From an uncultured Verrucomicrobiota bacterium (GTDB lineage: Bacteria > Verrucomicrobiota > Verrucomicrobiia > JABWAM01), in contig CAZZBZ010000001.1 in the NCBI GenBank assembly GCA_964653025.1, forward strand, positions 39,826-103,825: DNA of 64,000 nucleotides, given 5' to 3'. Made by a program: the position numbers and the translations under genes. Every line of letters begins with the position of its first letter. The first letter of the stretch is position 1. The notes under the pieces were generated by a model. It saw nothing but the letters and a program-made list of their open reading frames with translations, had not been told where the DNA came from and did not search any database. Positions 33,204 through 59,793 of this stretch are shown here, one piece after another.

Positions 33204-33284
33204 GAGAGGATTCACGCATCCGTTTTTGGGGGTCTGTCGAATCGGGTTGACTCCCTTGTGCAACGAGTGGAATTTCTCGCCCCC

Positions 33285-34292
33285 ATGAAGAATCCTGCTT
33301 GCGTCGCGATTTTGGGCGCCACCGGTGCGGTGGGCGTCGAGGTTTTGAAGACCCTCGAGAAGAGGAACTTTCCCGTCAAGGAACTCATCCTGCTCGCCTC
33401 GGGCCGCTCCGAGGGGAAGACCATGGAGTTCCGCGGCAAGAAGATCGCCGTGAAGGCGGTGACCCCGTCCTCTTTCGCGGGTGTGGATATTGCGATTTTC
33501 AGCGCAGGGGCGACCCGCTCCCGCGAGTTCGCTCCACATGCGGTGAAGGCGGGCGCGGTGGTCGTGGACAATTCCTCGGCTTTTCGCATGGATCCGGGGG
33601 TCCCGCTCGTGGTGCCGGAGGTGAACGGAGGCGACCTGACCCTTCACAAGGGGATCATCGCGAACCCGAACTGCTCGGCAGCGATCATGTGCGTGCCGCT
33701 CTGGCCGCTGCATCGCGCGGCGCGGATCCGTCGCATCGTGGTCTCCACCTACCAGGCCGCCAGCGGGGCCGGCGCGAAGGCGATGGCCGAGCTTGAGGCG
33801 CAGGCACGAGATGTGCTCGCCGGCAAGCCGGCGAAGAAGGAGGTGTTTCCCCACCAGATCGCGTTCAACGTATTCTCCCACAATACGAGCGTGGCCGACA
33901 ACGGCCTCAACGAGGAGGAGAACAAGATGATCGAGGAGACCCGGAAGATGTTCCACGAGCCGAACCTCTCCATCTGCCCCACCTGCATCCGTGTGCCGGT
34001 CTTCCGCGCACACGCGGAGAGCCTCGTGATCGAGACCGAGCGCAAGCTGGGGGTCGACGAGGCGCGTGCGATTCTTTCCCGTGCCCCCGGCGTGAAGCTG
34101 GTGGACGACCGTGCGAAAAACCACTTTCCGATGCCGATCGAGGCGACCGGACATGACGAGATTCTCGTCGGCCGCATCCGCGAAGACCCATCGATCCCGA
34201 ATGGCCTGGCGCTGTTCGTCGCCGGCGACCAGCTCCTCAAGGGCGCAGCGCTCAACGCCGTGCAGATCGCCGAGCTTCTTTTGAAGCGCTGA
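33285..34292 (+). CDS. asd: Aspartate-semialdehyde dehydrogenase
   Basis: VAILGATGAVGVEVLK ... NCSAAIMCVPLWPLH (active-site Cys) ... VSTYQAASGAG ... C-terminal ASADH dimerisation domain. Confidence 0.9.
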   Translation: MKNPACVAILGATGAVGVEVLKTLEKRNFPVKELILLASGRSEGKTMEFRGKKIAVKAVTPSSFAGVDIAIFSAGATRSREFAPHAVKAGAVVVDNSSAFRMDPGVPLVVPEVNGGDLTLHKGIIANPNCSAAIMCVPLWPLHRAARIRRIVVSTYQAASGAGAKAMAELEAQARDVLAGKPAKKEVFPHQIAFNVFSHNTSVADNGLNEEENKMIEETRKMFHEPNLSICPTCIRVPVFRAHAESLVIETERKLGVDEARAILSRAPGVKLVDDRAKNHFPMPIEATGHDEILVGRIREDPSIPNGLALFVAGDQLLKGAALNAVQIAELLLKR

Positions 34293-35339
34293 TCAGGGGA
34301 CCACCACCGGACGGTCGATCCAGAAAGGGAGCTGCATGCCGCGGCGGAAGGCGGCGAGGGATTTCGGCGAGGAGTTGATGCGGAGGTTACTCCAGGTCTC
34401 ATCGGCATTCTGCCAGCGTTCGTGCCAGTAGACCGCGGCCTTGAGGCGAGGATAGTCCCTCGGCATGCGGTCAAATGCCTCCTCGAAGAAGGCATCCTTA
34501 CTTCCCTGGTTTGGAAACTCCCCGACGCCCCACTCGGCAAACATGATTGGCTTGGTCGGGTGCAGTCTCACGATCTCGTCGTAGGGCATCCGCGCGACAT
34601 CCGTGAAGGTAAGCCAGCCTCCCTTGGAGTTTTGTTTTCCGTAAACACTGAGGCCAAGCCAGTCCACCACATCGTCCCCGGGGTAGTAGGTTTGTATGGT
34701 GTTCCACGAGGCGACCGGCCAGGAGTAGTTCTGGGCGTGGTAGACCCACTCCACGTTGCGGGCGCCCTCGGCGCGCACGATGCCGACGACTCGACGGTAG
34801 GCGGCGATAAAGCGTTCGGGGCCGTCGGCTTTCTTCGGGTCACCGAAGCGGCGGGTTTCCCCGCCGCCCTGCACGGGACCGCCCCACGGGAACCAGTCGC
34901 CGTTCATTTCGATCCCAAAGGCCACGAGGAGCGGGATGCGGGTCGCACGAGCCTTCCGCGCCCAGTCGCGGAGGTAAGCGTCGAACTTCCCCTCGATGAT
35001 CCGGTCGAGGGAATACTCGGGTTGGGGCTCGTTCTGGCGGTAGGGCGGCCCCCACGGCGACCAGAAGATGAGAGGGATGGCGTTTGCGCCCCGCACGACC
35101 TCGACCTGGGCGGAGGGAAATCCCTTCCGTCCCCAATAACTGGAAAAGGCGACGATCGCCTGGCGCCGCCCCGAAAGCTTCTCGAAGGCGGAGATGGTGG
35201 ACGGGGTCAGGTCGTCCTCGGCCTCGCCGAGATCCATGTAGGCGCCGACGTAGGCACCGCGCGGGGGGATGGCGAGGTGCTGGGCGAGAACCGCAAGCGT
35301 CGATGCAAGGAAGAGGATAAGGAAGGGAAGGCGTATCAT
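34293..35339 (-). CDS. Secreted glycoside hydrolase, GH26-like (clan GH-A), last gene of the EPS/exosortase cluster
   Basis: Signal peptide MIRLPFLILFLASTLAVLA. GAYVGAY ... ipLIfwspW ... GKFDAYLRDWA ... LLVAFGIEMNGDWFPWGG matches the GH26 core pattern (..R.gHE.NG.W.pWg). 4-bp overlap with the upstream synthase gene. Confidence 0.6.
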   Translation of the reverse strand: MIRLPFLILFLASTLAVLAQHLAIPPRGAYVGAYMDLGEAEDDLTPSTISAFEKLSGRRQAIVAFSSYWGRKGFPSAQVEVVRGANAIPLIFWSPWGPPYRQNEPQPEYSLDRIIEGKFDAYLRDWARKARATRIPLLVAFGIEMNGDWFPWGGPVQGGGETRRFGDPKKADGPERFIAAYRRVVGIVRAEGARNVEWVYHAQNYSWPVASWNTIQTYYPGDDVVDWLGLSVYGKQNSKGGWLTFTDVARMPYDEIVRLHPTKPIMFAEWGVGEFPNQGSKDAFFEEAFDRMPRDYPRLKAAVYWHERWQNADETWSNLRINSSPKSLAAFRRGMQLPFWIDRPVVVP

Positions 35340-38300
35340 GCGGGAGGGGAGTCTACGTGGACGGTGGCGGTGCGGGGGACTTTTCCCCAGGAAACCAGCG
35401 CCCCGCGAAGGGCGCGGCGGAAAGCGCCCCAGACGACGATGCAGAGGAGGGGGCGGTAGACGAATCGCTGGGGCAGGACCCAGAGGGCCCGGCGTATAGG
35501 TTCGCGGTCGAGTCGAAGGGCGAGCATGGCGAGGAGGGTATCCGAGAGGAGGAAGGCGAGGAGGAAGAGGAGGACAAGGCTGCCCCCGCCGCCGAGGACG
35601 GAGAGGATGACGAGCAGGTCCACGATAGGGGACATGGCGGTGAGAAGAACTTGAAAAAACCAGAGGCTGGGCATCGCGATCCAGCCAAGAGTGCCGGCGC
35701 GCGGGTTGAACAGGGCCTCACGGTGTTTCCAGAGGCATTGGAGGGTGCCGAAGGCCCAACGGAAGCGCTGGCGAAGGAGACCCTTCACCGTTTCCGGGCA
35801 CTCGGTCCAGCCGATGGCGCGATCCGCGTAGGCCACTCGCCAGCCATCCCTTCGGATTTGCATGGTGAGATCGGTATCCTCGGCGAGGGTGTCGGCGGTG
35901 AATCCGCCGGCTTTCGCGACGGCTTCGCGACGATAGGCACCAATGGCCCCCGGCACCACGGTGATGCAGTTGAGGAGGTCGAAGGCGCGGCGGTCGAGGT
36001 TGAAGCCCGAGGTGTATTCCAGGGACTGGAACTTCGCGAGCCAACGGCGGCGGTTGCCCACCCTGGCGTTTCCCGAGACCGCACCGACATTCGGATTGGC
36101 GAGGAGGGGTGGCACGAGGCGAGCCAGCGCACCGCGGCCGATACGGGTATCCGCATCGATGGAGACGAGAAGGTCGTAGCGGGCCGCGGCGATTGCGGCG
36201 CCCAGGGCACCCGCCTTACCGGTGTTTTGCTGGGAGATTCGGCGGACGCGCGGGTCAGTGGCGAAGGCGACGGAGATGACCACGGCGGTGGCGTCGGAGG
36301 AGCCATCGTCCACGACAACGACCTCGAGGGTACCCGGGTAACCACAGTCGAGGACTGCTCGGATCGCAGCCTCGATCACGCGTTCCTCGTTATAGGCGGC
36401 GATGACCACGCTCACAGGCGGGAAGGAGGACGGTGGCGGAAGCGGGGGTCGCCGTGCCTGCCAGAGCGCGAGGGCCGCGATGGCGAGGGAGCGCAGGATC
36501 ACGAGGATCGTGGCGACAATGAGAAAGGCCCAGATGAACTCGATGAAGCCATGGACAACCGAGAGGCCAAAGCTGGTGGCAAGGATGGTATGGCGCTCGG
36601 CATTCGGGGCCGGGGGCATCATCTGGTCGTGGGGTATGCCGGCGAGCTCGCTGGCGGTGACGAATCGCACGGGGCGATGGTGAGAGTCGCGCAGCCAGCG
36701 GATCATGGGACGCAGGGCCTCGACCGTCTGGCGGCGATCCCCTCCCCCATCGTGGAGGAGGACGACCGATCCCTCCGAACGGAGCTGCTGCACGCGTCGA
36801 AGGATTTCGGCGGTGCCGGGGCGCTCCCAGTCCCGGGGGTCGATGTTCTCGCAGAGGGTGAGATAACCGAGTTCCTGCGCGCGGAGGATGGGACGGATCT
36901 CGGCCATCGTCTGGGGACGCGAATCGGCGGAGTAAGGCGGGCGGAAGAGGATGGTCGAGCGGCCGGTGATCGACTCGATGAGCCGCTGCGTGGCATTGAG
37001 TTCGAGGTCAAGTTGGACGCGGGGGGTCTCCGAAAGGTCGGGGTGGGTGTAGGTGTGGACCCCGACCTCGTGCCCTTCACGGACCATGCGGACGAGAAGG
37101 TCGGGGTTTTTCTCGGCGGCGCTGCCGACGATGAAAAAGGTGGCCGTCACCCCCTCGGCCTTCAGGATATCGAGAATCTGTGGCGTCCAGTGGCGGTCGG
37201 GTCCGTCATCGAAGGTGAGGGCGATCCAGTTGGGGGAGACGATACCGCCGTGCTCGACGCGGAGGGGTTTCGGGGGATCGAGATAGCGGACGCGAACGCG
37301 ACCGGAGGGGAGGCGTTCAAAGGTGCGCAGGCCCGACTCACGCTCCGGGTGGATGCGGAGGATCTCTCCCTCGCCGACGTGGACGACTTCGTCGGGAAGC
37401 CTGATCCGGTTAAGAGGTTCCCAGTCGCTTTCCGAGGTCGCACGGCGGCGGGCGAGGACGAGGGCGTCCCACAGGGAGGGATCTTCATCACCGAGTTTCC
37501 AAACAGCGATGCCGGCAACGCCTGCGGAGCGGGCGGCGCGGACCTGGTTGAGGGCGGTGGCCGCGTCAAGGAACCAGACGGTGTGCTGTTCGTCGTCCTT
37601 CGCGTAGGAGAAAGTGGGGTTGCCCTCCTCCCCCGCCCAATCAATTCCCACGGGTTCAGCGCTGTCGGCGAGGCTCATGACCTCGGCAAAGGAGAGGTCC
37701 CTGCCCACAGGGCCGCCGAGAGGCCAATCGCACCCGAAGTTGCCGATGGCGGCAATCCACTGGCCGGGGCGACCAAACTCGAGCATTCGGTGGAGCCAGC
37801 GCTCGAACCATGGCTGCGAGGCGAGCGCACCGGGCGGGTCGTGGCGCGAGTTTTCGTTACAAAGCATCGCAATGAGGTAGTCGGCGTGCTCCACGAGACG
37901 GTCGAGGTCGAAGACGAGGGCGTCCCAGCCGACGGGGACGCAGATCATGAAGAGGAGGCCCTCCTCATGGCAGCGGGTGGCAAAACGGATGAGGAAGTCG
38001 TTGAAGGCATCGCTGTAGGAGGGATCGACCTCCTCGAAGTCCACGGCCAACCCCTCGCAGCGAGCGGATTTCACAAGACGAAGGGCCTTCTCAATAAATG
38101 CGGTGCGGTCAGCCTCGGGGCCGGTGACCAGTGCGGCCATGAGGTCCCCTCGCCACCCTTCAAACTCGTTCGTGAGCAGGGCAATGATCTTGAGGTCGTG
38201 CTGGTGGGCGAGGTGACGAGTCTCTGGTTCCGCGGCAAAGGCGAGGTCGAGGTTTTCGTTGGCGATCGTGATCCAGCGTGGGCAGAGGTGGGTAAGGTGG

Positions 38301-38699
38301 GGCGCCGCACGATCGAGCGCGGCGAGGGTGGAGGGGTTTTCCTCGGGAAGGAAACCGAGGGTGATGGGCTCCGGGGGACGGGGAAAGGCCGCACTCGCGG
38401 AACGCCGGCGATCTCGCTCCGCTGTGCCGAGCGAGTGGCGGAGGGCGGGGGTTTCACTGCGCCGCATCGCGCGGCGCGTATCCCGGAGGGGATGTTGGAG
38501 GCCGCGCAACTGGGAACGGAGGGTAGCGACCGAGGAGGGAAGGCGAAGGAAGGGTTGCTCGAGCAGCGAGCGCGCAAATAACAACGCAGCGGCAAAGAGG
38601 ACAAAGCACCCCAGGAGCGCCGCTACGCGGATGATCTTCCAGCGAAGGCCGCGGGCATCGTGGAAGATAAACTGGCGCGTGGGCGCGGGGACGGTCATC
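35336..38699 (-). CDS. Multidomain membrane polysaccharide synthase/modifier: N-terminal TM + GH18-like (chitinase-fold) domain + CE4 polysaccharide deacetylase (NodB) + processive GT2 synthase (QxxRW) + C-terminal TM bundle
   Basis: About 1121 aa from MTVPAPTRQF, followed by a TM helix. GH18-like block (GLAVDFEEVDP ... GIAVWKLGDEDPSLWD). CE4 block (IALTFDDGPDRHWTPQILDILKAEGVTATFFIVG ... HEVGVHTYTHP ... LLHDGGG). GT2 block (VSVVIAAYNEE ... VVVVDDGSSD ... SIDADT ... QRFRWAFG). Then multiple C-terminal TM helices. The ORF upstream of the chosen start would overlap the preceding gene by about 370 bp and is rejected. Confidence 0.75.
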
Positions 38700-38715
38700 T
38701 CGGGGGACGGAAAGC

Positions 38716-41289
38716 TCAGAACCACGTTCGACGGGAACGGGAGGAGGCGAGCCCGACGTCGTGGGCCGCGAGCTCCACGATCTGGGCCACGCGGTGGCGG
38801 AGTCGCGTGCTCGCCCAGAGGAGGGCGGTAAGCCAGACGGGGACAGCGCAGAACCAGGCGCCGATGAGGCGGTAGCCCTCGGGGGAGGTCGTGGCCTCGA
38901 ATCGGAGCCATGCGAGAAGGCTCAGGACGGCGACGGGGATCCCGACCATCCGCGAGAAGAGAGTGGGGATCGGGTGGAGGCGAATGCGGGTGAGGCGCTT
39001 GCCATCGCCATGTTCCTCGGTGAGGGAGAGGAGACGGACCTGCCACCATCGGTTGCCGTAGACCTGGTAGTCCCAGTTGGTCCAACCCGTGTCGGCGGAG
39101 TACTTCCAGCCCTCCTGGTCGAGGCGCTTCTTGAAGGAAGAGAGGAAATGCTCACGGCCCGAGCCAGAATCGCTCCAGAAGGTGAGCAGGGCGGGACGGT
39201 CCCATTTCACGACCTGGGCACTACTGGGAGCGGGGGCACCGACGATCTTGCGCGGGGTGCGTTTCTTGCGGACCCAGGTGGAGTAACGGGCCCAGCCTCG
39301 GGCGACCGGCTGCCAGAAGGCGAGGGCGGCAATGAGGAGGCGGCTCCACGGGCGGCGGTAGCGCGTCTCGATCCTCGCGCGGAGCGCATAGGAGACCGCG
39401 ATGCCAAGGGATCCGGCAAACATCGCGGCAGGGAGGTACCAGATCGCATGCACCTGCAGCGAGACGAGAAGGGCCGCGAGGGCCATGGCATTCCACTCAA
39501 GGCTGCCCATGAAGAGCACGACATCCGAGGTACGCCCGGGATAGACGCACTGGAAAAGGCCCATTCCAAAGACGCCATGGTAGATGATGGGACGGTGGAC
39601 GACAGAGGAGAAGTTGGCGCCGCCGTAGACGCGGCCGCGCCAGCGGGCGGAGCCGGTCGGCCCGAAGTAGACGAGGTGCTTAAAGCGGAGCAGGGCCTCG
39701 GCCTCGCCATAGCCCTCCTGCTGCTTGAGGTAGGCGCGGACATTGAAGCGGCGGTGATGCCAGACGATGGCGGAGGGGCTGAACCCGATGCGGTACCCCT
39801 GCTGCATGAGCCGCCAGCAGAGATCGACATCGTCGCCCGCCTTGCGGTATTCGGGATCGAAGCCGCCGACGAGATCGAGCGCCCACTTGTGGAAGGCCAT
39901 GTTGCAGCCGGGGATATGCTCGGCCTCCACGTCGTCGATGAGCACGTGGCTGGGCTGGCCCGGGGAGGCGGCAACGCAGGCCTGCACCCAGTTCCGCGCG
40001 GGGGGCGAGATATTCGGACCGCCAACGGAGGCAAAGCCTCCCTGATCGAGCGTGCCGACAAGATAGTAGAGCCAGTCCTTGTCTGCCATGCAGTCACTGT
40101 CGATGTAGGCGATGATCTCGCCGTGCGCGGCCTGCATTCCCACGTTGCGAGCCACGCTCAGGCCGAGGTTCTCTTGGTGGAGGTAGCGGACCTTGGAAAA
40201 CTCGCGGGCAATGGACTCCGTATTGTCGGTGGAGCCATCGTCCACGAGGAGGACCTCGAAGTCGGGATAGTCCATCTGGAGGAGAGAGGTGAGGCATGCC
40301 TCGAGCGTGCGAGCGCCGTTATAGGAGCAGACCACCACGGAGACCGGGGGGGTGCGCGGGAGGGGGACACGGGTGTTGCCCTCAAAAAGGGAGTGGACCC
40401 GGGCGAGGGCTTTTTTGGGCCTTCGATCCGCGCCCACGAGGCCGAACTTCCAGTCTTCGATGAGGTGCCCACCGGTGAACCACTCGTCGGTCCACGAGAA
40501 GAGGATTGTGCCAGCGAGGCCAAGGCGGGCGACCGCGCTGATGTGCCAGCCCAGCAGTTCAGCCTGTTCCTCCTCGGAGTGGCGCACGGTGTCCATGCCA
40601 AACTCGCTGATGATGAGGGGCTTCTCCCCGGCAAGGTTCTGCAGGCGGGCGAGGTAACCCTCGAAGTCCCGCTGGCGATGCAGGTAGACATTGTACGAGA
40701 AGAAATCCACGGCATTCGGCAGGAGGTACTCAGTGGGAGGATAGTTCGCGTAGGTGAGGAGCGGACGGGGGTCGGCTTGGCGGGCGGCGTCTACGAGATC
40801 CTCGAGGAAGGCCTCGACCTTTCGGGACCCGTACCAGCGGACGATGCTGGTCGGGATCTCGTTGCCCACCGCCCAGGCGAATAGCGCGGGATGGCCCCGT
40901 CGCTCGCGGGCGGCGCTCTCCACGCGACGGAGGATGGATCGGCGGCTCCGCCGCCCATCGAGGAAACAGACGTGCTGCTCCCATGGAATCGTGGCGTACG
41001 CCTTGAGCCCCGCACGCTCGCACTCGTCAAGGAACCAGACCGGAGGAGGGTGGTAAAGGCGGACCGTGTTGATGCCTGCCGCAGTCATCTGCGTGAAGTC
41101 GGCGCGCACCTTCGCGGGTTCCGGAAGGAATATGGGGGCGCCCCCCTCATCACGGGGCGGGAACGGCCCGTAAGTCACCCCCTTGACGAAGAACTTACGC
41201 CCGCCGTGGAAGAAAAACTTCGAGTTGGCGACGATGCGAGGGGCGCTCGTGCGAACGACTTCAACTTCGTCCATGGAATCCTGAGACAT
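38716..41289 (-). CDS. Fused glycoside hydrolase (clan GH-A TIM barrel) + family 2 glycosyltransferase with C-terminal membrane domain
   Basis: 857 aa. N-terminal GH-A block with acid/base FAWAVGNEIP and nucleophile LIISEFGMD. GT2 block PPVSVVVCSYNGARTLEACLTSLLQMDYPDFEVLLVDDGSTDNT ... YIDSDC. About 6 TM helices in the C-terminal 300 aa. Confidence 0.7.
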   Translation of the reverse strand: MSQDSMDEVEVVRTSAPRIVANSKFFFHGGRKFFVKGVTYGPFPPRDEGGAPIFLPEPAKVRADFTQMTAAGINTVRLYHPPPVWFLDECERAGLKAYATIPWEQHVCFLDGRRSRRSILRRVESAARERRGHPALFAWAVGNEIPTSIVRWYGSRKVEAFLEDLVDAARQADPRPLLTYANYPPTEYLLPNAVDFFSYNVYLHRQRDFEGYLARLQNLAGEKPLIISEFGMDTVRHSEEEQAELLGWHISAVARLGLAGTILFSWTDEWFTGGHLIEDWKFGLVGADRRPKKALARVHSLFEGNTRVPLPRTPPVSVVVCSYNGARTLEACLTSLLQMDYPDFEVLLVDDGSTDNTESIAREFSKVRYLHQENLGLSVARNVGMQAAHGEIIAYIDSDCMADKDWLYYLVGTLDQGGFASVGGPNISPPARNWVQACVAASPGQPSHVLIDDVEAEHIPGCNMAFHKWALDLVGGFDPEYRKAGDDVDLCWRLMQQGYRIGFSPSAIVWHHRRFNVRAYLKQQEGYGEAEALLRFKHLVYFGPTGSARWRGRVYGGANFSSVVHRPIIYHGVFGMGLFQCVYPGRTSDVVLFMGSLEWNAMALAALLVSLQVHAIWYLPAAMFAGSLGIAVSYALRARIETRYRRPWSRLLIAALAFWQPVARGWARYSTWVRKKRTPRKIVGAPAPSSAQVVKWDRPALLTFWSDSGSGREHFLSSFKKRLDQEGWKYSADTGWTNWDYQVYGNRWWQVRLLSLTEEHGDGKRLTRIRLHPIPTLFSRMVGIPVAVLSLLAWLRFEATTSPEGYRLIGAWFCAVPVWLTALLWASTRLRHRVAQIVELAAHDVGLASSRSRRTWF

Positions 41290-41306
41290 AAACAGCGGCC
41301 GATTTT

Positions 41307-42611
41307 TCAGAGACGGACCCGATCCTTGAATGCGTTGATGCCCTTGATCAGGTCCACGGCGCGATCGAGTTGGACGTCACGCACGGGAGTTTTCTTGCTG
41401 CCATCAGGAAGGAACTCTTCGGGCTTGGGCTCGTCCTTCTTCGTGGGGTCGGCAGCCTGGCTGCGTTGGAGGAGGATCTGGTTCCACTCCTCGTCGCTCA
41501 TGGGGACGGCGATGTCGGGGGTGATCCCGTGCTCGTGGATGACCTTGCGGCTGGGGGTGTAGTACTTCGCGGTGGTGAGACGGATGGCACAGTTGCCCTT
41601 CACGGGGATCACGCTCTGGACGGAGCCCTTCCCGAAGCTGGTCTCGCCAACAATCACGGCGCGCCGGGTGTCCTGAAGGGCACCGGCCACGATCTCGGAG
41701 CCGCTGGCGCTGCCCTCGTTGATCAAGACGACGAGCGGATAGTCGGGGTGAGGCTTGGCAGAGCGGACGCGGTATTCCTGTTTCACGGCGGGATTGCGTC
41801 CCTCGGTAAAGACGACGAGGTCGCCCTTGGGAAGGAACTTGCCCGCGACGTCCACAGCGGAATCGAGAAGGCCGCCGGGATTATTACGCAAATCCAGGAC
41901 CAGGCCGTTGAGTCCGTCTTTTTCGAGCTTCTGCAGGGCCTTTTCGAATTCGTCGGCGGTGGGCTCGTTAAACTGGACGATGCGGACATAGCCAATCTTA
42001 CTCTCCATGACGCGGGCGTCCTTGACGCTCTCCACCTTGATCATGGCGCGGATAATCGGGATATCCTTCACCTCGCGGCTACTGGGGCGGAGAATGGTAA
42101 TCGTGACCTTGGTGCCCGGGACGCCGCGGAGCTGCTTGACGGCATCGCCGAGGGGCAGGCGGTCGGTGGACTTGCCCTCGATGCGGATGATCTTGTCGTT
42201 GGGGAGGAGCCCGGCCTTGAAACCGGGGGTGTCCTCCATGGGAGAGATGACCGTGAGGATGCCATCCTTCATCCCCACGACAACCCCGATGCCGCCGAAC
42301 TGGCCGCCCGTCTCCTGCTTCATCTCCTCGTAGCCGGTGGGCTCCATGAACTGGCTGTGGGGGTCAAGCCCGCCGAGCATTCCCTTGAGGGCGCTGTAAG
42401 TAAGGTCCTGGTAACTGAGTTTGGAGCCATCCACATAGTCCTTGCGGATGATTTCCATGACGCTCGTGAAGAGCTCGACGTTGCGGTAGGCGGACTCCTT
42501 CTCCTTGTCCTTGTCGTCCGCGGCCGCGGAGAGGGTCTGGACACGCCACCCGAGAACGAGATTTCCAAGGAGGAGGAGTAGGACCAGGAAGGCGGGCAAT
42601 CGTCGACGCAT
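41307..42611 (-). CDS. ctpA: Carboxyl-terminal processing protease (S41 family, CtpA-like) with PDZ domain
   Basis: Signal/TM N-terminus. PDZ (GIGVVVGMKDGILTVISPMEDTPGFKAGLLPNDKIIRIEG). S41 catalytic region (VLINEGSASGSEIVAGALQD ... GETSFGKGSVQ). Confidence 0.85.
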   Translation of the reverse strand: MRRRLPAFLVLLLLLGNLVLGWRVQTLSAAADDKDKEKESAYRNVELFTSVMEIIRKDYVDGSKLSYQDLTYSALKGMLGGLDPHSQFMEPTGYEEMKQETGGQFGGIGVVVGMKDGILTVISPMEDTPGFKAGLLPNDKIIRIEGKSTDRLPLGDAVKQLRGVPGTKVTITILRPSSREVKDIPIIRAMIKVESVKDARVMESKIGYVRIVQFNEPTADEFEKALQKLEKDGLNGLVLDLRNNPGGLLDSAVDVAGKFLPKGDLVVFTEGRNPAVKQEYRVRSAKPHPDYPLVVLINEGSASGSEIVAGALQDTRRAVIVGETSFGKGSVQSVIPVKGNCAIRLTTAKYYTPSRKVIHEHGITPDIAVPMSDEEWNQILLQRSQAADPTKKDEPKPEEFLPDGSKKTPVRDVQLDRAVDLIKGINAFKDRVRL

Positions 42612-42625
42612 GGGGATGGCGGGGA

Positions 42626-43585
42626 TCAAACCTTGTCTTTGAAGAAGTCGATGGTTTTCTGAAGGCCCTCGGCGAGTTGGACGCGGGGCTCCCAACCGAG
42701 AAGCTTCCTGGCGAGAGAGATATCGGGGCGGCGCTGCTTCGGGTCATCCACGGGGAGCGGTTTCTCGACAAGGGTGCTTCGGCTTCCGGTCACGCGGATG
42801 ATCTGCTCGGCAAACTGGCGGACGGTGAGCTCGGCGGGGTTGCCGATGTTGACGGGGCCGTGATGGGGCGAGGTCGCGAGGCGGAAGATGCCATCAATGA
42901 GATCGCTCGCGAAGCAAAAGCTGCGGGTCTGGGAACCGTTCCCGAAGATGGTGAGAGGTTCGCCGCGAAGGGCCTGGCCGATGAAGGCGGGAACGACACG
43001 CCCGTCGCGCAGGCGCATGCGGGGGCCATAGGTGTTGAAGATACGGACCACCTTGACGTCCACGCCATGGGCGCGGTGGTAGGCGAAAGTCATGGCCTCG
43101 GCGAAGCGCTTGGCCTCGTCGTAGACACCGCGCGGGCCGATCGGGTTCACGTTGCCCCAATAGTCCTCGGTCTGGGGGTGGACGAGCGGGTCGCCGTAGA
43201 CCTCGGAGGTGGAGGCGAGGATGAAGCGGGCGTTCTTGGAATGCGCGAGGCCAAGGGCCTTGTGGGTGCCGAGAGACCCGACCTTGAGGGTCTGGATGGG
43301 AAGCTCGAGGTAGTCGATCGGGCTGGCGGGGGAGGCGAAGTGGAAGATGAAGTCCACGGAGCCCGGGTAGAAAAGGTATTCGGTGACATCCTGATGGATG
43401 AAGCGGAAGTGGGAGTTGCCGGCGAGGTGGGCGATATTCTCGATGTTGCCGGTGATGAGGTTGTCGAGGGCGACGACAAAGTGGCCCTCGGCGAGAAGGC
43501 GATCGCAGAGGTGGGAGCCGAGGAAGCCGGCGCCTCCGGTGACGATGGAGACGGGATGCGCTTTGGAGGGAGTGGGATTGGTCAT
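42626..43585 (-). CDS. uxs: UDP-glucuronate decarboxylase (UDP-xylose synthase)
   Basis: [33 protein letters not shown] ... [40 protein letters not shown] ... [11 protein letters not shown] ... DGRVV ... GNGSQTRSF. Near-colinear with eukaryotic and bacterial UXS. Confidence 0.85.
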
Positions 43586-43598
43586 GGGGAAAGGGGGT

Positions 43599-44993
43599 TC
43601 AGCGGGCGCCAGCGCCCGTGAGAACCACAGGGATTGTTTTCATGAGGATTTTCAAGTCGAGCCAGAAACTCCAGTTGTCCACGTACTCGAGATCGAGGCG
43701 GGCCCACTCGTCGAAACTGTGGATGCGATTGCGGCCGCTGACCTGCCAGAGGCAGGCGAGGCCGGGTTTCACGCTGAGGCGGCGGCGGTGGTGGAGCTTG
43801 GAAATCTGATGGGTTTCATAGACCGGGAGGGGGCGTGGGCCGACGAGGCTCATCTCACCCTTCAAGACATTCCAAAATTGGGGGAACTCATCAATGCTGG
43901 TGCGGCGCAGGAATGCGCCGACGCGGGTAATACGGGGGTCCTTGCCGATCTTGAAGACGGGTCCGTCCATCTCGTTGAAGGCGACGAGCTCGGAGCGGAG
44001 CATATCGGCATTGGAGACCATGCTGCGAAACTTGAACATGCGGAACACGCGGCCGCGAAGGCCGCTCCGTTCCTGGACAAAGAAGATCGGGCCGCGGGAC
44101 TCAATGCGGATGGCGATCGCGGCGAGCGTCATGAGGGGAAGGGTCAGGATCAGGCTGAGGACGGAGACGGTAATGTCGAGCAGGCGCTTGGCAAGGAACT
44201 GCCAGAGGGAGGGATGCCTGGCAACGAAGAGGATGGTGGGGTGACCAAGAATCGTCTCGAAGCTGGCGGTCGCGAGGTGGGGTTTGAGGGCCTCGCTGAG
44301 GAGCCATGCCTCGACACCCTGAAGCTCGCAGATGGTTACGGCCTTTTGGATCCCCTCGAAGCCGGCGTGAGGAACGCGAAAGATGACGGCGCTGATCGGC
44401 TCGCGGTTGAGCCAGTCGGAGACGGAAGTCTCCAGGCTGTCGAGGATCGAGACCTCGCCCACGACGGTGAGGTTCATCTCGGTTTGCAAACAAATCTGCT
44501 CCCTCAGGGCAATCAGGTGCTCGGGGGAGCCGACGAGGAGAACGCCGGAGGGCGGGCTTTTGCCCTGAAAGAAGAAGTCGAGGACATCCCTGAGGAAGAA
44601 GTGGCGGAGAGAGATCAGGGCGAAACCGATTGCGGCAAAGAGGATCACCACGCCGCGGGCGAGGTTGCCCATCTTGAACATGAAGATGAGGAGGCCGCAC
44701 ATCAGCAGCAGCAGGAACATTGCCTGGCCAAGGCAGAAGAAGAAGGTGCCCGGCTTGTCGAGAAGACCCCTTCGGTAAACCAAGCAGGAATCGAGGATCA
44801 ACGGGCCGAGGATCACCACGAAGACCAGCAGAGGGGCAAATCCCTCGAAGGAGCTGATGCGCGGAAGATCCCATCCCGGCAGGTCGGAGGCACGGAAACG
44901 TAGACCGTGGCCGCCCCAGAGGGCGAACCCCAGCAGAACGCCGTCAGCGAGCTGGGAGAGGAGGCTGCGCAGTTCTTTTTGTTGCGAGAGCAT
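43599..44993 (-). CDS. Polyprenyl-phosphate sugar phosphotransferase (WbaP/EpsB-type 'bacterial sugar transferase'; exosortase-associated priming glycosyltransferase)
   Basis: N-terminal multi-TM region. C-terminal catalytic domain ... [26 protein letters not shown] ... [21 protein letters not shown]. Start at MLSQQ; the upstream extension is unsupported. Confidence 0.8.
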
Positions 44994-45001
44994 GGAGTTT
45001 T

Positions 45002-45694
45002 CTATCCCGTCGTCTTCTGAAAGAGGGGAACGGCCTGTTGGAGAAAACTCCGCAGAGCCTCCTCGGTTTCTTTCTCGCGTCCGGGAGGCGGGTTCACAAT
45101 CAGGGCCACGTACGCCCAACGGTGATGCACGTTGAAGAAGATGCGGTCGAAGGCCGTCCAGAGCACGCGGTTCAGGTGGCGCGGGGTGAGGCGGTTCTTG
45201 CCCACGAACCAGTAGCAGTACCAGTTGCGGGAGGAAACCGATCTCCCATCGGGCGCCTTCCCCTCCCGCGAGATCACGAGGCGCATCAGGTCGAGGTTGT
45301 ACACGCGGGGAGAGGACATCGGCACGCGGAGGAGGCCTCCCTGGCTAAGGCGCCAGCCCTGGCCGACAAGGCAGGCCTCGGCGGCATGGATGCTGGAGCG
45401 GTCGCGCCCGCTCAGGACGAGCCCGAGGAAGATCTCCCGCCCTTTCGGGTCGCGGTAGACCTTGCGGGCGAACTCGGTATCCGCACCGAGATAGTCGCGT
45501 TCGATCTGGGAGACGGGGGCGTCCTGGCCAACCCAGTCGCCAATTCGTGTGGGGAGTTGCATCGAGACCCCCGCGATGGCCTCGGCCGCCACGTCGGTGG
45601 TCTTGAGCGTGACGGCGAGGGTGGCGAGCACCAGCGCGATGAGGATCGCGGTCAGTGCGAGGGGATGGGATGGGCCCCGTGGGGAGAGTTTCAT
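45002..45694 (-). CDS. epsI: EpsI-family exosortase-associated protein
   Basis: 230 aa. Single N-terminal TM (LALTAILIALVLATLAVTL), then a periplasmic domain. Positioned immediately downstream of the exosortase, as in XrtA/EpsH-EpsI systems. Confidence 0.65.
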   Translation of the reverse strand: MKLSPRGPSHPLALTAILIALVLATLAVTLKTTDVAAEAIAGVSMQLPTRIGDWVGQDAPVSQIERDYLGADTEFARKVYRDPKGREIFLGLVLSGRDRSSIHAAEACLVGQGWRLSQGGLLRVPMSSPRVYNLDLMRLVISREGKAPDGRSVSSRNWYCYWFVGKNRLTPRHLNRVLWTAFDRIFFNVHHRWAYVALIVNPPPGREKETEEALRSFLQQAVPLFQKTTG

Positions 45695-45703
45695 GAGGGC
45701 GGG

Positions 45704-46858
45704 TCAGGGCTTGGTGACAGGGGTGGACTGGGGCAGCCGCTGGGGAAGGGCGGCGAGGAAACGCACCTTCGCGACGGCATAGTCGGCGTTAATCAAACGG
45801 CTGACTCCGACGAGAAGCAGGACGACCACGAGGAAGATGAGGAAGCCGAACCACTCGTGGACCACGTTTCCGGCCTTCTGACCAAAGCACTGGGCGGCGA
45901 TGATGATCGAGGTGATGCGGACGATGTTGCCGGCCACGGCGAGAGGGAGGCCCGAGAGGCAGAGCACAATCTTCTTCCACGCTTCCCGCTGGGTCACGTA
46001 GCCGTAAATAAGCGAGAGCATGATAATCGCTGTGAGCGAGCGGATCCCGCTGCAGGCCGGGGCGACGTCGTACTGGTAGGCCCCGGTGGGGTCGAAGATG
46101 CGGGTGCCGTCGCGCATCACGCCGATCCCGAGGGCCTGGCCGATGTCGGTGGAGACGATCGTCACCAGCATGCGCATCGGGAAGGCGACGAGCGTTTCGA
46201 GGAAGTTCATGGGGATCATGAACACGAGAAAGGCAAACGGAAAAGCCATGGCCCGGGCCCTGCGAAACCCCTGCAGGCACACGACAAGGGACCAGAGCAG
46301 GAGGAGGAGGGCGAGGACGCTGGCGCGCGGGATCTGCCCGCGCATCCCCATCCAGTGGAGGAGGAGGGCAAAGAGGGCGGGGATGAGGCCCCGCGAGTCG
46401 GGGGCGGCGGGGCATTCGAGGATGGCCTTGCGGTTCCACCAGAGCAGGCCGAGCGAGATGAACGGGACGAGGGGGCCGTGGGAGCTGTCGTAGATGGGGT
46501 CGTTCCAGGCGATCCAGAGCCAGTTGAAGAGGGAGGTGCCGAATTTACTGACCCAGATGCTATTTCCCGCCTTAAAAAACAGCAGGGAGACGCATCCCAG
46601 CAGGACCATCGCCAGCCAGAAGCTCGCGCGACGAAGGCGTCGAGGCAGATCGGCGAGCGCAGCGACTTCCCGCAGGAAAGAGGAGAGTTCGGCGCGAAAG
46701 TGCCAAGCAGCGGCCGCGAGCCCGGCGAGCACAACCAGGATGACCGACGGGTTGGATGCGCCCCCTTCCACTTGCGCGGCATCCCCTGCCGCGAAGAGCG
46801 GGGAGACGGTCCCGAGGAGGGACAGGATGACCGACGGGAGGTATCTGCGACGGCTCAT
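45704..46858 (-). CDS. Exosortase (Xrt/EpsH family transmembrane transpeptidase)
   Basis: 8-TM protein with conserved exosortase motifs ... APACSGIRSL (active-site Cys) ... NIVRITSIIIAA (Arg) ... 384 aa. Confidence 0.8.
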   Translation of the reverse strand: MSRRRYLPSVILSLLGTVSPLFAAGDAAQVEGGASNPSVILVVLAGLAAAAWHFRAELSSFLREVAALADLPRRLRRASFWLAMVLLGCVSLLFFKAGNSIWVSKFGTSLFNWLWIAWNDPIYDSSHGPLVPFISLGLLWWNRKAILECPAAPDSRGLIPALFALLLHWMGMRGQIPRASVLALLLLLWSLVVCLQGFRRARAMAFPFAFLVFMIPMNFLETLVAFPMRMLVTIVSTDIGQALGIGVMRDGTRIFDPTGAYQYDVAPACSGIRSLTAIIMLSLIYGYVTQREAWKKIVLCLSGLPLAVAGNIVRITSIIIAAQCFGQKAGNVVHEWFGFLIFLVVVLLLVGVSRLINADYAVAKVRFLAALPQRLPQSTPVTKP

Positions 46859-46888
46859 GCAAATGTCTGGCGTGGATTCATGTTTGGG

Positions 46889-49402
46889 TCAGTTCGCTCC
46901 CGCGTGCTCTGCCTGCAAGCGGCGGAGACGCTCCTCGGCCTCGGTGCGGCAGGGGAGCTTGGCATCGATCATTCGACGCAAAACCCGTGCCGCCCCGCGC
47001 CAATCCTTCTGGCTCTCCAGGATCCGCTCGGCTTCGAGCCCACCGCGGCAGATCCAGTAGAACTCACGACCCTCGGGGGTCCCACTCGGGGCAGGCTTCT
47101 CATACAGCGGAGCGAGGTGACTTTCCAGCGCCTTTGTAAGGTCGCCCATCGTTTCCCAGGTCTTCCCCATCTCGACGAGGGCCTGGTTGCGAAGGGCGGC
47201 ATCGGCTTTGGGAGAATCGAGGACCGTCTTGAAGGCGGCAAGCGCTTCCTCGTTGCGCTTGAGTTGGCGCAGGCACTGGCCGCGACGGCCCTGCGCCTCG
47301 ATTACCCGCTCGGGGAGTGGCTGAGGCTTGCCGGTCTCGACAGGCTTGACGAGATCCTCAAAGACTTTGAGGGATTCCTGGAACTTGCCGCGCTCCGCGA
47401 GGATGTCGCCGTAAAGAAACCACGCTTCGGGGACCCAGGGCGAATCGGGGTAATCCTTCACGAGCGCCTCGATGAGGCGCCGCGCATCGTCCCTGGCCTG
47501 CCCGAGGCGATGGGCGGCGCGCGCGGCAAAGTAGGTGGCCTCCGGGGCCAGCGGGTGAGCGGGGGCGTTTTTTCGAAGGAGCTCGAACTGCTCCTGGGCC
47601 TTCGCGTGATTGCGAGCGCGATCGTACCAGGCCCCGAGCCAGAACTGCGCCTCGATGGCGGCGGGGGAACGCGGGAAGGCCCGTACGACGCCCTCGAACT
47701 CGGCGACCGCCTTTTCGGGGGACTCGGTATGTTCCATGCAATGCGCACGGACGAGCATGGCGCGGGGAGCGAGATCGTGCTTGGGAAACCTTTCGAGAAA
47801 GGTCGAGGCGGCCTCGGAACCTTCCTTCACCCTTCCGATCGCGTGAAGCGTCTCGGCGTAATCGAGCCATGTGCGGGGAGCGATGGGGGAGTTGGGAAAC
47901 TGGTCGAGGAGGGCGCGGAGCGCCTCCGCGGCCTTCGTGGGTTGTCCTTGGCGGCGGGAGGCGTCCGCTGAGAGAAGAAGAAACTCGGCGCCAAGGCGTC
48001 CGGAGGGGAAGGCGGCAGTGTGTGCGGCTTGAAGGCGGGCCACCTCGGCGGGCTTTCCCGCACGAAGCCACGCACTCGCCCCCTGGTAAAGCGCCTGCTC
48101 GGGCACAGCAGGGTCGATGCCCTTGACCTGCGCGGCCTTCGCAAAGGCGTCGGCCGCGGCCTCGAACTGCTGGCGCTCCATATTGAGGTCGCCGATCTTC
48201 AGCAATGCCTCCGCCTGCACCTGCGGGGTGCGCGCGCGGTCGGCGGCCTTCTGAAACTCAGAGGCGGCAGACTCGAACTTCTTGTCCTCGAGGAAGACCC
48301 ATCCAAGCTGGAGGTGGGCCTGGTCGTTCCATGCGCCGTTGGGATACTTCTCGAAGAAGTCCTGAAAGGCCTGGATCGCTTGATCGCGACGATCGGCGCG
48401 CTTCCAGAGGACACCGACCTGAAGGAAGAGCGCCTCACCAAAAGAGGTCCCCTTCGCCTCGCCTGCCCACTCGGCAAGGCGGTCGGCGAGCACGCGCGGT
48501 TTGTCGAGCTTGAGATAGGCCCCGGTCAGGGCGTCGACGCAGCGGAGGCGGAATGAGGAATCGGTGCTGGTGCGGAAGGCTTGCTCATATTGGGCGGCGG
48601 CCGCGGCCTGATTGCCGGCGGCGGCCTCAATCTCGCCGAGACGCAAGCGCGCAAGGGGAGCAATGCTGCGAGCCTCGGGATTCTCCGATTTTGCGATGGA
48701 CTCAAAGCGGGCGCGCGCCGACTCGGTCAGTTTACGTTCCAACTCGACCTCCCCGAGGGAGAGGGCGGCCTGGAAGCCGATGCCGCTTTTTGCCTCCTCC
48801 TTCGCGAGGCGGCCGAGGACCTGCGCGGCCTCGTCGTACTTCTTTTGCTGGGCAAGGCAGGTGCCGAGGGAGAGGGTGGCCTGCGCGGCAATGTCCTTGC
48901 GGGATTCCTTTTGCAGGGCACGGAACATCTCCTGGGCGGCATCGAACTTGCGGTCGAGCGCCAGGGCGCGCGCCATCCCGTAGCGCGCCTCCGGCAGATA
49001 ACGGCTCTTCGGGAAGTTTTTGGAGAAGGCCTCAAACGTCTTTGATGCGGCCTCGCCGAGCCCCCCCCGCAACTGGGCCTCGCCCAAGAGCAGGGAGAGG
49101 CCGTCCTGCCATTCGGGGCTGGAGGAGGGAAGAACCGATTCGATCGCAAGCTGTGCCCCCTGCCAGTCGCCGGCATTGAGGCGGGCCCGGGCGAGGAGCC
49201 AGGAACCCTCATCCCGCGCCTCCGATTGAGGAAACTGGGTGAGGAGCTTCTCGAACTGCGCGGCGGCCACCTCGTTCAGATGGTCCTCAAGCGCCTTGCG
49301 CCCGAACGCGATCAGGCGCTTTTCCTCTTTCGAAAGGTCGGCGTGCGCCACCGTGGCCAGCGAGGCCACCGCGAGGAGCAGAGCAAAGAATGCGCAGTTC
49401 AT
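46889..49402 (-). CDS. Large secreted TPR-repeat protein (PrsT-like PEP-CTERM-system TPR protein)
   Basis: 837 aa. Signal peptide [21 protein letters not shown], then about 20 TPR-like repeats throughout. Located directly upstream of the exosortase, as PrsT is in PEP-CTERM/EPS loci. 4-bp overlap with uvrA. Confidence 0.55.
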   Translation of the reverse strand: MNCAFFALLLAVASLATVAHADLSKEEKRLIAFGRKALEDHLNEVAAAQFEKLLTQFPQSEARDEGSWLLARARLNAGDWQGAQLAIESVLPSSSPEWQDGLSLLLGEAQLRGGLGEAASKTFEAFSKNFPKSRYLPEARYGMARALALDRKFDAAQEMFRALQKESRKDIAAQATLSLGTCLAQQKKYDEAAQVLGRLAKEEAKSGIGFQAALSLGEVELERKLTESARARFESIAKSENPEARSIAPLARLRLGEIEAAAGNQAAAAAQYEQAFRTSTDSSFRLRCVDALTGAYLKLDKPRVLADRLAEWAGEAKGTSFGEALFLQVGVLWKRADRRDQAIQAFQDFFEKYPNGAWNDQAHLQLGWVFLEDKKFESAASEFQKAADRARTPQVQAEALLKIGDLNMERQQFEAAADAFAKAAQVKGIDPAVPEQALYQGASAWLRAGKPAEVARLQAAHTAAFPSGRLGAEFLLLSADASRRQGQPTKAAEALRALLDQFPNSPIAPRTWLDYAETLHAIGRVKEGSEAASTFLERFPKHDLAPRAMLVRAHCMEHTESPEKAVAEFEGVVRAFPRSPAAIEAQFWLGAWYDRARNHAKAQEQFELLRKNAPAHPLAPEATYFAARAAHRLGQARDDARRLIEALVKDYPDSPWVPEAWFLYGDILAERGKFQESLKVFEDLVKPVETGKPQPLPERVIEAQGRRGQCLRQLKRNEEALAAFKTVLDSPKADAALRNQALVEMGKTWETMGDLTKALESHLAPLYEKPAPSGTPEGREFYWICRGGLEAERILESQKDWRGAARVLRRMIDAKLPCRTEAEERLRRLQAEHAGAN

Positions 49403-55404: not shown

Positions 55405-55429
55405 CGGCGGCAGTGGGCGCGAAAGGCGA

Positions 55430-56914: not shown

Positions 56915-56939
56915 GTTCGAATGAAGTTGAGAAATTTGG

Positions 56940-57689
56940 TCAGGTCTTCCACTGGCGCGACTGCACGATGCGGTGCGTCACAAAAAGGAAGAAGCCGGTG
57001 CCGGTAAAGTAGAAGACGACCCGCTTCCACTCCACCACCCCGCGGGAAAGCTCCTGCATGTGGGCAAGGATCGAGAAGGACTCAAAAAACTCACGACTCT
57101 GACCGGCGGCGTTCAGATAGAAGTAGATGCCGGCAAAGAACAGTCCGCAGCTCATCGCGAATGAAATCACGGCCGCGATGATCTGGTTGCGCGTGCTCGC
57201 CGAAGCCATGCATCCGATCGCCACGAGAAGCATCCCCATCATGAACAGCCCGAAATAGCCCCCCGCCACGGGGCCGATGTCCAGCGGGGTCTTATCGTGC
57301 GAGAAGTGGCGCAACACCCAGACGTAAGCCAGGGTCGGCAGCCAGATCAGGCAGAAGAAAAAGAGGCCGCTCAGGAACTTTGCCGCCACGTACTCCGCAT
57401 CGCGCAACGGGGCGGTCATCAGCGCCTCAATCGTACCCGTGCGCTTCTCGTCCGCGAAAAGCCGCATGGTGATCACCGGCGGCACGACCAGCAGGATGAT
57501 CCAGGTGAACATCCCGTTGAAGAACCACATCAGCGGCGTGTAATCGCTCGGGCCCTCCGTCAGGATCGTCACGATCATATTGAAACTGATGCCCGTCAGA
57601 CCCAGCACGCACACCCCCACGATATAGGCGATCGGGGAACAGAAATACGCGAGCAACTCGCGCCTGAACAGGATGGCAACGTTTCTCAT
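56940..57689 (-). CDS. ABC-2-type transporter permease (GldF-like)
   Basis: 249 aa, 6 TM helices. ABC-2 permease pattern with the conserved EKR.GT.E.L.. motif (ADEKRTGTIEALMTAPL). Confidence 0.75.
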   Translation of the reverse strand: MRNVAILFRRELLAYFCSPIAYIVGVCVLGLTGISFNMIVTILTEGPSDYTPLMWFFNGMFTWIILLVVPPVITMRLFADEKRTGTIEALMTAPLRDAEYVAAKFLSGLFFFCLIWLPTLAYVWVLRHFSHDKTPLDIGPVAGGYFGLFMMGMLLVAIGCMASASTRNQIIAAVISFAMSCGLFFAGIYFYLNAAGQSREFFESFSILAHMQELSRGVVEWKRVVFYFTGTGFFLFVTHRIVQSRQWKT

Positions 57690-57693
57690 AATC

Positions 57694-59783: not shown

Positions 59784-59793
59784 GTTGTCATCC

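Follow-up and report, generated by a model that had tools for sequence, protein, structure and literature searches.

Genes and boundaries of the run

The stretch of DNA analysed here (the window, 64,000 nucleotides of contig CAZZBZ010000001.1 from an uncultured Verrucomicrobiota bacterium; G+C content 65%) carries nine minus-strand genes at 34293–49402, which encode an exosortase cassette of the PEP-CTERM protein-sorting kind, a fusion of a glycoside hydrolase (GH) barrel to a glycosyltransferase (GT), and a three-domain membrane synthase with a secreted hydrolase partner. We consider it likely that this 15-kb run is a mosaic of separately inherited cell-envelope modules, packed head-to-tail between uvrA and asd by a recent rearrangement in one Verrucomicrobiia lineage. 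Domains were called with Pfam and NCBIfam models at their curated cut-offs, with sequence matches to the PDB and with a fold search using predicted models. The genes of the run and its boundaries are as follows:

49399–52335, minus strand: uvrA, the upstream boundary gene (Pfam UvrA domains; 4-bp overlap with the TPR gene)
46889–49402, minus strand: periplasmic tetratricopeptide-repeat (TPR) protein, 837 aa, with a signal peptide (Pfam TPR families; YbgF/CpoB-type units)
45704–46858, minus strand: exosortase of an unnamed subtype, 384 aa (PF09721, 182 bits; TIGR02602, 142 bits, passing the cut-off of 106)
45002–45694, minus strand: EpsI, the exosortase partner, 230 aa, one N-terminal membrane helix (PF11984, 77 bits; TIGR02914, 52.2 bits, passing the cut-off of 42.8)
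43599–44993, minus strand: polyprenyl-phosphate glycosyl-phosphotransferase (PGT), a priming enzyme, 464 aa (PF02397, 231 bits; TIGR03025, 364 bits, passing the cut-off of 296)
42626–43585, minus strand: UDP-glucuronate decarboxylase, that is, UDP-xylose synthase (UXS), 319 aa, of the short-chain dehydrogenase/reductase (SDR) family (matches to human UXS1 structures)
41307–42611, minus strand: S41 C-terminal processing peptidase with a PDZ domain, 434 aa, signal anchor (PF03572, 191 bits; TIGR00225, 341 bits, passing the cut-off of 219)
41290–41306, no strand: 17-bp junction between the exosortase block and the synthase block (the neighbours on either side differ in GCA_020849895.1, JGI 3300010356 and GCA_029558365.1)
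38716–41289, minus strand: GH-A TIM barrel, GT2 domain and C-terminal membrane domain, 857 aa (Pfam GH2_C, 40 bits; GH72, 28 bits; GT2, 117 bits)
35336–38698, minus strand: membrane synthase with GH18-like, CE4 and GT2 domains, 1120 aa (Pfam, NCBIfam, PDB matches, motifs and AlphaFold2 fold)
34293–35339, minus strand: secreted GH26 hydrolase, 348 aa, with a signal peptide (PF02156, 43 bits, cut-off 20)
33258–34292, plus strand: asd (aspartate-semialdehyde dehydrogenase), the convergent downstream boundary (Pfam; its stop codon abuts that of the GH26 gene)

All nine genes were found where a preliminary description, made from the sequence alone, had put them. Each starts with ATG, their G+C content by codon position has the pattern of real genes, and their lengths equal those of the genes called in a relative at 87% identity (L003). 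From the TPR gene to the GH26 gene the spacings are 30, 9, 8, 13, 14, 17, 17 and −4 bp; thus, of the 4-bp overlaps and tiny gaps described earlier, the gaps stand (30 bp or less), but only one 4-bp overlap, that of the synthase and GH26 genes, lies within the nine. A second (ATGA, 49399–49402) joins the uvrA stop codon to the TPR start codon, so that the co-directional run has ten genes counting uvrA, and a DNA-repair gene comes first. The two genes are coupled translationally and are unrelated in function. The model searches bore out the families expected for the exosortase (TIGR02602), EpsI (TIGR02914), the CE4 domain (PF01522) and the GH26 protein (PF02156), as well as for the CtpA protease, which is an S41 peptidase by TIGR00225, for UXS, and for the GH-A/GT2 fusion, in which Pfam finds a GH2_C-type TIM barrel plus GT2. 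The large synthase is indeed a fusion of GH18-like, CE4 and GT2 domains, of 1120 rather than 1121 aa.

The surroundings are housekeeping genes: secDF, yajC, tgt, a P-type ATPase gene, hisI, a GH3 gene, terC and an ABC transporter. The GH26–asd adjacency is retained in L002, L003 and L170. At the other end, the uvrA–TPR adjacency is retained in two relatives at 73–78% identity (L004 and L171), where the conserved upstream neighbour of the exosortase block is again the DNA-repair gene.

Inheritance of the gene blocks in relatives

Three sets of loci show how the blocks are inherited: (i) Among the relatives examined, the exosortase and synthase blocks are joined only in the window and in L003, a metagenomic locus with 87% synthase identity that keeps all nine genes. 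In GCA_020849895.1 (78%), contig 66 carries GH-A/GT2–synthase–GH26–asd with unrelated genes upstream, and contig 67 carries uvrD–uvrA–TPR–SDR–exosortase–EpsI–PGT–UXS–S41, followed by unrelated convergent genes. In the JGI sample 3300010356 (~73%) the synthase block (L170) is preceded by a prepilin peptidase gene, and the exosortase block (L171) lies on another contig; in GCA_029558365.1 (L172, ~73%) a gene other than GH-A/GT2 follows the S41 protease. In GCA_964475835.1 (exosortase 51%), three SDR genes precede exosortase–EpsI–PGT–UXS–S41–tsaD, with no synthase within 10 kb, and GCA_023269615.1 (synthase 56%) has the synthase and GH26 genes only, with a phosphohexomutase gene before them. Relative to the close relatives, the gap at 41290–41306 reads as a rearrangement breakpoint. 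(ii) In 80 synthase loci from GTDB species representatives, with neighbours taken within 10 kb, we found neither exosortase nor EpsI (0/80). GH26 is directly downstream of the synthase in 5 of the 80, all of them closest relatives, and GH-A/GT2 is present in 1. (iii) In 24 more distant exosortase loci (metagenomic, 36–45% identity, each with 5 kb or more of DNA downstream; 21 clusters when grouped at 70% identity), the S41 protease, the TPR protein, the synthase, GH26 and GH-A/GT2 were each absent (0/24). EpsI, by contrast, is directly downstream of the exosortase in 24/24 of these loci, PGT comes after EpsI in 23/24, and UXS comes after PGT, at ~70% identity and in the window's order, in 17/24; an 18th locus has just a weak upstream SDR match.

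Three conserved units emerge from these comparisons. The first is exosortase–EpsI–PGT–UXS. The S41 protease is joined to it in this clade only: it follows UXS in L003, L004, L006, L171 and L172, and the TPR protein is missing from L006 as well as from the distant loci. The second, as judged by homology, is a stand-alone GH-A/GT2 membrane protein, common and highly conserved in Verrucomicrobiota. The third is the three-domain synthase, to which GH26 has been added in its own subclade. Since UXS travels with exosortase–EpsI–PGT, UDP-xylose is tied to the exosortase cassette and not to the synthase, which leaves the xylosylated GlcNAc backbone proposed in the preliminary description unsupported. 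The same description had coupled the exosortase module to the synthase pathway; the separate contigs of the 73–78% relatives and the 0/80 and 0/24 co-occurrence do not support this coupling.

The synthase relatives are hosted by Verrucomicrobiota, Desulfobacterota, Alphaproteobacteria, Acidobacteriota, Gemmatimonadota, Bacteroidota and Firmicutes, and in Actinobacteria with the CE4+GT2 part only. Across the 80 loci, no broadly conserved synthase neighbour was found, except for the gene of a ~480-aa membrane protein found upstream of the synthase in 12 of them (on the opposite strand in 12 of 13 copies; e.g. L022, 7942–9507), the only recurrent neighbour outside the GH26 subclade.

The three modules and their putative products

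The first module, exosortase–EpsI–PGT–UXS with the S41 protease and the TPR protein of this clade, would be a PEP-CTERM protein-sorting cassette. Its exosortase has ~8 hydrophobic segments and the catalytic residues Cys269 and Arg273 (CSGIR) and His334 (HEW motif); across 14 exosortase relatives C269 and R273 never vary, and at least 90% of them retain H334. The enzyme passes the family model but not that of XrtA (TIGR03109; 150 versus a cut-off of 208), and it scores far below every cut-off for the XrtD, W, V, B, C, N, T, S, G, J and O models, so that XrtA and the other named subtypes are ruled out by their curated cut-offs. The PGT is a priming transferase, as described earlier (Bac_transf domain; TIGR03025), but not of the XrtA/PEP-CTERM type, since it fails TIGR03013 (179.5 versus a cut-off of 393). 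The SDR gene product is, by sequence similarity, assigned as a UDP-glucuronate decarboxylase: its match to human UXS1 (1e-107, 363 bits, residues 13–317) stands far apart from the next-best family (4e-42). The TPR protein matches the NCBIfam model TIGR02795 in 7–9 stretches, its best models being the YbgF/CpoB, PorW and BamD TPR units. It had been called PrsT-like, an identity ruled out by the lack of any match to the PrsT model TIGR02917, even at E≤10.

In this module, the exosortase would cleave Sec-exported proteins at their PEP-CTERM tail through its Cys/Arg/His residues, while PGT would make a polyprenyl-diphosphate sugar and UXS would supply UDP-xylose for a short lipid-linked glycan that may accompany sorting. 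PEP-CTERM substrates are usually not clustered with the exosortase cassette. A motif scan of the window returned a single protein, a candidate exosortase substrate of 303 aa (1253–2164, minus strand) with the PEP-CTERM tail IPEPSAALLVGAGALLVVLRTRRARQARV, which also gives weak NCBIfam PEP-CTERM matches. A conserved substrate gene adjoining the cassette was ruled out, as only one convincing case was seen in 27 loci.

We found no paper that pairs an exosortase with a UDP-glucuronate decarboxylase, and the steady presence of UXS in the cassette appears to be unreported. It is conceivable, if on balance unlikely, that exosortase–EpsI–PGT–UXS is an undescribed exosortase subtype of Verrucomicrobiota and their relatives, in which a xylose-containing lipid-linked glycan serves as the acceptor for cleaved PEP-CTERM proteins or as their decoration. 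The consistent link between UDP-xylose synthesis and one exosortase subtype offers a way to look experimentally for the acceptor or glycan in PEP-CTERM sorting, and the xylose-glycan proposal, if true, would for the first time indicate in chemical terms to what exosortases attach their substrates.

Other genes occur near the exosortase in some relatives. One SDR epimerase/dehydratase gene lies 5' of it, after the TPR gene, in L004 (9009–10004) and L171 (9003–10004), and in L006, which has no TPR gene there, three precede the exosortase (7133–10004); as the window and L003 have no such gene, this lineage seems to have lost a sugar-modifying gene. Of 27 loci, 11 carry a GT26 gene (~258 aa, WecG/TagA-like by sequence appearance only) ~1 kb upstream of the exosortase (e.g. 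L141, 7389–8165); the Pfam scan detected none in the nine-gene cluster or in the flanks that it covered.

The second module is the single GH-A/GT2 gene. All 8000 of the 8000 scored candidate homologues reach E≤1e-10, and the best 120 listed are 52–98% identical over the full length; the gene stands alone amid housekeeping genes in two other genomes. Asn143–Glu144 and Glu229, which correspond to the acid/base and nucleophile of clan GH-A, are invariant in 58 sequences. The model (pLDDT 76) matches GH2 glucuronidases and a GH157 beta-1,3-glucanase in fold, and MftF/EpsD-type models come nearest to the GT2 domain. The protein lacks a signal peptide and is free of hydrophobic segments up to residue 590, so that barrel and transferase are both predicted to be cytoplasmic. 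The protein would thus combine a hydrolase- or transglycosylase-like barrel with a transferase, both facing the cytoplasm, and would probably make and remodel a beta-glucan-type oligo- or polysaccharide. An abundant verrucomicrobial protein would then carry an apparently active glycosidase barrel on the cytoplasmic side.

The third module is the synthase with its GH26 partner. The synthase has a helix at residues 24–42, a long extracytoplasmic stretch with the GH18-like (~100–480) and CE4 (~490–690) domains, a helix at 725–743, the GT2 domain (~760–1000) and further helices from 1017 at its C-terminus. The CE4 domain scores 117 bits with PF01522 (cut-off 23), and its motifs TFDDG495, HTYTH548, RPPY586, DPRDW620 and LLHD647 are invariant in 66 relatives, as are the GT2 motifs DDGS797, DADT848, ED940 and QRFRW977. 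With D, DxD, ED and QxxRW motifs and membrane helices, the protein belongs to the processive membrane GT2 class of BcsA, HAS and PgaC; Pfam scores its GT2 domain at 113 bits. The AlphaFold2 model (pLDDT 88) matches SleL (6e-22), the chitinase 5jh8 (TMt 0.87) and the peptidoglycan deacetylase Bc1960 (TMt 0.86), and its GT2 part matches hyaluronan and cellulose synthases with their membrane part included.

The GH18 assignment of the preliminary description stands in part: PF00704 scores 23.5 bits, under its cut-off of 29.6, whereas PDB sequence (5jh8, 7e-13) and fold (SleL) matches support it, and the modelled fold is clearly that of GH18. Of the catalytic motif DxxDxDxE just D220-x-E222 is present; 50 of 66 relatives have the catalytic Glu and 16 have another residue in its place, and the window's clade has CN where YD is expected. 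Hence the domain may bind rather than cut. We ruled out that it is a PgaB-type GH153 domain in reversed order, since the PgaB match is weak (E 0.019) and confined to the CE4 part, and since GH18 structures are among the listed fold matches.

The GT2 domain is 34% identical to E. coli PgaC over 338 residues (E 2e-50), PgaC_IcaA (TIGR03937) is its best NCBIfam model (210.6 bits), and residues 493–1121 are ~40% identical to actinobacterial CE4+GT2 proteins of MatB architecture. From these matches and the retained GT2 and CE4 catalytic motifs we infer a processive GlcNAc-type synthase of the MatB/PgaC kind that carries its own deacetylase, as had been proposed before. Its cytoplasmic GT2 would polymerise UDP-GlcNAc, the chain would pass through the membrane helices of the same protein, the periplasmic CE4 tethered to it would partly de-N-acetylate the chain, the GH18-like domain would bind or trim it, and the secreted GH26 would process it.

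As GT2 points to a beta-1,6 linkage and the tethered-domain families to beta-1,4, we leave the linkage between both, with a slight preference for the beta-1,6 of poly-N-acetylglucosamine (PNAG). That the product is instead a beta-1,4-linked chitin- or chitosan-like oligomer or polymer, made by NodC/NodB logic, is possible, if the less favoured option. The GH18 fold of SleL and chitinases comes from families acting on beta-1,4-GlcNAc, the CE4 domain is of the NodB/PgdA type (NodB model, 138 bits) with the poor PgaB match given above, and Pfam Chitin_synth_2 scores over its cut-off. However, PgaC_IcaA scores twice as high as the NodC model (107 bits), the GT2 is that of a PgaC relative by identity, and the GH18 domain may be non-catalytic here; in addition, the CE4 of MatB is also nearest to beta-1,4-acting enzymes, yet its product is PNAG-reactive and removed by dispersin B (PMC5972031).

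The GH26 protein is, over its full length, closest among solved structures to the Clostridium thermocellum lichenase Lic26A (2e-24), and both of its catalytic glutamates (IEMNG, AEWG) are kept in 9/9 partner sequences. It lies directly downstream of the synthase in L001–L003, L009–L011, L082 and L170. In a Desulfamplus sp. (P0031, 1556 aa) the GH26 domain is fused to the C-terminus of the synthase, which is independent evidence that both genes work together. The linker of this fusion still resembles a lipoprotein signal (…LSLFAIGC).

Elsewhere in the window lie the following features:

228–1130, minus strand: prepilin-type protein with an H-X9-DG C-terminal motif, adjoining the window's only PEP-CTERM protein
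4524–6920, minus strand: long open reading frame (ORF), 798 aa, with gene-like codon bias and no Pfam or NCBIfam match
15651–17986, minus strand: a GHMP sugar kinase and a nucleotidyl transferase, an adjacent pair
53524–58629, minus strand: four-gene block of DUF4340, ABC_transp_aux (GldG-like), ABC-2 permease and ABC ATPase, resembling gliding-associated or uncharacterised ABC export systems
59785–61623, plus strand: long ORF, 612 aa, with gene-like codon bias and no Pfam or NCBIfam match
62850–63989, minus strand: Wzy_C/O-antigen-ligase-like ORF (72 bits), near the window end and perhaps incomplete

Prepilin-type proteins with H-X9-DG and PEP-CTERM proteins are both classes typical of Verrucomicrobia. 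Together, the kinase and nucleotidyl transferase could salvage a sugar by way of its 1-phosphate and turn it into a nucleotide sugar. The 612-aa ORF partly overlaps an ORF for a Ras/Arf-like small GTPase (61553–62278), and the Wzy_C ORF gives a weak match (43 bits, cut-off 188) to the model 'exosortase A system-associated O-glycosylation ligase'.

Packing, alternative explanations and known systems

The gaps in the run are too short for promoters, so that the nine genes are probably co-transcribed in this organism, as far as their arrangement allows one to judge; in a scan of 33.5–53 kb no promoter-like site appeared and terminator-like sites were no more frequent than chance predicts, the consensus used not being calibrated for Verrucomicrobia. 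Since uvrA is coupled by an equal 4-bp overlap, tight packing in this genome does not imply shared function. This is a caution for genome scans, in which co-directional packing that reaches a gene such as uvrA is weak evidence of a common role.

Several points nonetheless weigh against a mere mosaic and against the roles given to its parts: (i) neighbouring genes lie at most 30 bp apart and terminators are not in excess, so that the genes may be co-expressed and hence may cooperate functionally to some degree in this lineage; (ii) one further population at least (87% identity) has the same nine-gene arrangement; (iii) metagenomic contigs are fragmentary, and absence within 10 kb does not mean absence from the genome; (iv) according to Haft et al., genes for polysaccharide deacetylases and sugar transferases are usual neighbours of exosortases (PMC1569441); (v) the synthase GT2 falls under the curated PgaC equivalog cut-off (210.6 versus 422), the GH18 and NodB-type CE4 families normally act on beta-1,4-GlcNAc, and the GH18-like domain may, from its residues, be non-catalytic; and (vi) the products of all three glycan modules are deduced from genes.

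Another reading is that independent modules were recently fused into one operon for co-regulation, PEP-CTERM surface proteins and two matrix glycans being co-expressed under one promoter as a biofilm or envelope programme. We regard this as rather unlikely. In its favour, gaps of 8–30 bp leave no space for intergenic promoters, the scan found no promoter-like site and no terminator-like sites above chance, the upstream region that GH-A/GT2 has for itself in relatives (~260–280 bp) is lost here, and the arrangement persists in a second population. However, the equal packing of uvrA suggests that the compaction may be neutral, promoters can sit within upstream coding sequence, and the case rests on sequence and on an uncalibrated promoter consensus.

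One integrated pathway, in which a lipid-primed, xylosylated and partly deacetylated GlcNAc polymer would be exported or anchored through the PEP-CTERM/exosortase machinery, is very unlikely: tight co-directional packing, its persistence in the 87% relative and the habit of exosortase genes of lying in polysaccharide loci with deacetylases and sugar transferases (PMC1569441) agree with it, but the halves are unlinked in two relatives at 73–78% identity, no exosortase accompanies any of the 80 synthases nor a synthase any of the 24 exosortases (a lack of co-conservation that had already weakened it), UXS co-varies with the exosortase cassette only, a processive QxxRW synthase requires no lipid-linked primer, and uvrA is just as tightly packed. 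If true, it would link a secreted polymer to protein sorting in a new way, but the evidence is against it. Nor does the cluster follow the Wzx/Wzy logic suggested for it in the preliminary description: the priming transferase stands alone, with no flippase, polymerase or export genes beside it and no Wzx, Wzy, Wzc or Wza domains among the nine genes in Pfam or NCBIfam, and the Wzy_C ORF at 62.8 kb that had been invoked is real but separated from the cluster by housekeeping genes and 13 kb. The mosaic of separately inherited modules is the reading that we retain, and no mechanistic step joins the synthase module to the exosortase.

Each module shares features with a system already described, and each also differs from it: (i) That exosortase genes lie amid genes for polysaccharides, those of Bac_transf proteins and polysaccharide deacetylases included, belongs to the founding description of the family in 2006 by Haft et al. 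(PMC1569441), so that the link between exosortase and polysaccharide locus is not new. As in the EpsH/XrtA system described there, an exosortase with Cys, Arg and His comes first, EpsI and a Bac_transf priming transferase come next, the locus is of the polysaccharide type, and PEP-CTERM substrates are scattered elsewhere, with one in this window. In contrast to that system, the cassette is not XrtA by the curated model, lacks PrsK, PrsR and PrsT, has a PGT that is not of the TIGR03013 type, has UDP-xylose synthase as its conserved fourth gene and an S41 protease attached in the clade, and lies in a cluster without chain-length, flippase, polymerase or export genes. (ii) NdvB-type cyclic beta-1,3-glucan synthases combine GH17 with GT2 and have a periplasmic barrel (PMC10237404). 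Like them, the GH-A/GT2 protein is a single polypeptide (~860 aa) with a clan GH-A TIM barrel, a GT2 domain and a multi-helix membrane domain, and its Pfam and fold matches include families active on beta-1,3-glucan (GH72, GH157). Unlike them, it has no GH17 match, no signal peptide and no helices between barrel and GT2, and its barrel is predicted to be cytoplasmic; NdvB membership is ruled out by this topology and by the missing GH17 match. (iii) In Streptomyces MatB, an extracellular CE4 is fused to a PgaC-like GT2, and the product behaves as PNAG (PMC5972031). The synthase likewise has an extracytoplasmic CE4 joined through a membrane helix to a PgaC-like GT2, with neither PgaA nor PgaD, although this likeness is one of architecture, drawn through the ~40%-identical actinobacterial proteins and not through the sequence of MatB (SCO2962) itself. 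It differs from MatAB in its additional N-terminal GH18-like domain (~380 residues), its GH26 partner, the lack of an identified MatA counterpart and its diderm host, with no outer-membrane porin gene nearby. CE4–GT fusions in Gram-negative PNAG-like operons without pgaA and pgaD have been noted earlier (PMC7112194). (iv) With E. coli PgaABCD the synthase shares a GT2 related to PgaC, a periplasmic deacetylase and a periplasmic glycoside hydrolase, a set whose logic is that all three work on one chain. However, it lies below the PgaC equivalog cut-off, its deacetylase is NodB-type rather than PgaB-like, its hydrolase domain is GH18 and not GH153 and is N-terminal to the deacetylase, and the three activities are on one polypeptide. 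The nine-gene cluster holds no pgaA, pgaD or outer-membrane porin gene, a PgaA-type porin/TPR protein being likewise absent, and without PgaD there is no evident c-di-GMP control of the synthase.

A widespread uncharacterised polypeptide with hydrolase, deacetylase and synthase parts, present in eight or more phyla, may explain deacetylated GlcNAc matrix polymers in bacteria without pgaABCD. The cluster as a whole brings together, in this one lineage, modules of kinds already known, some of them in new variants.

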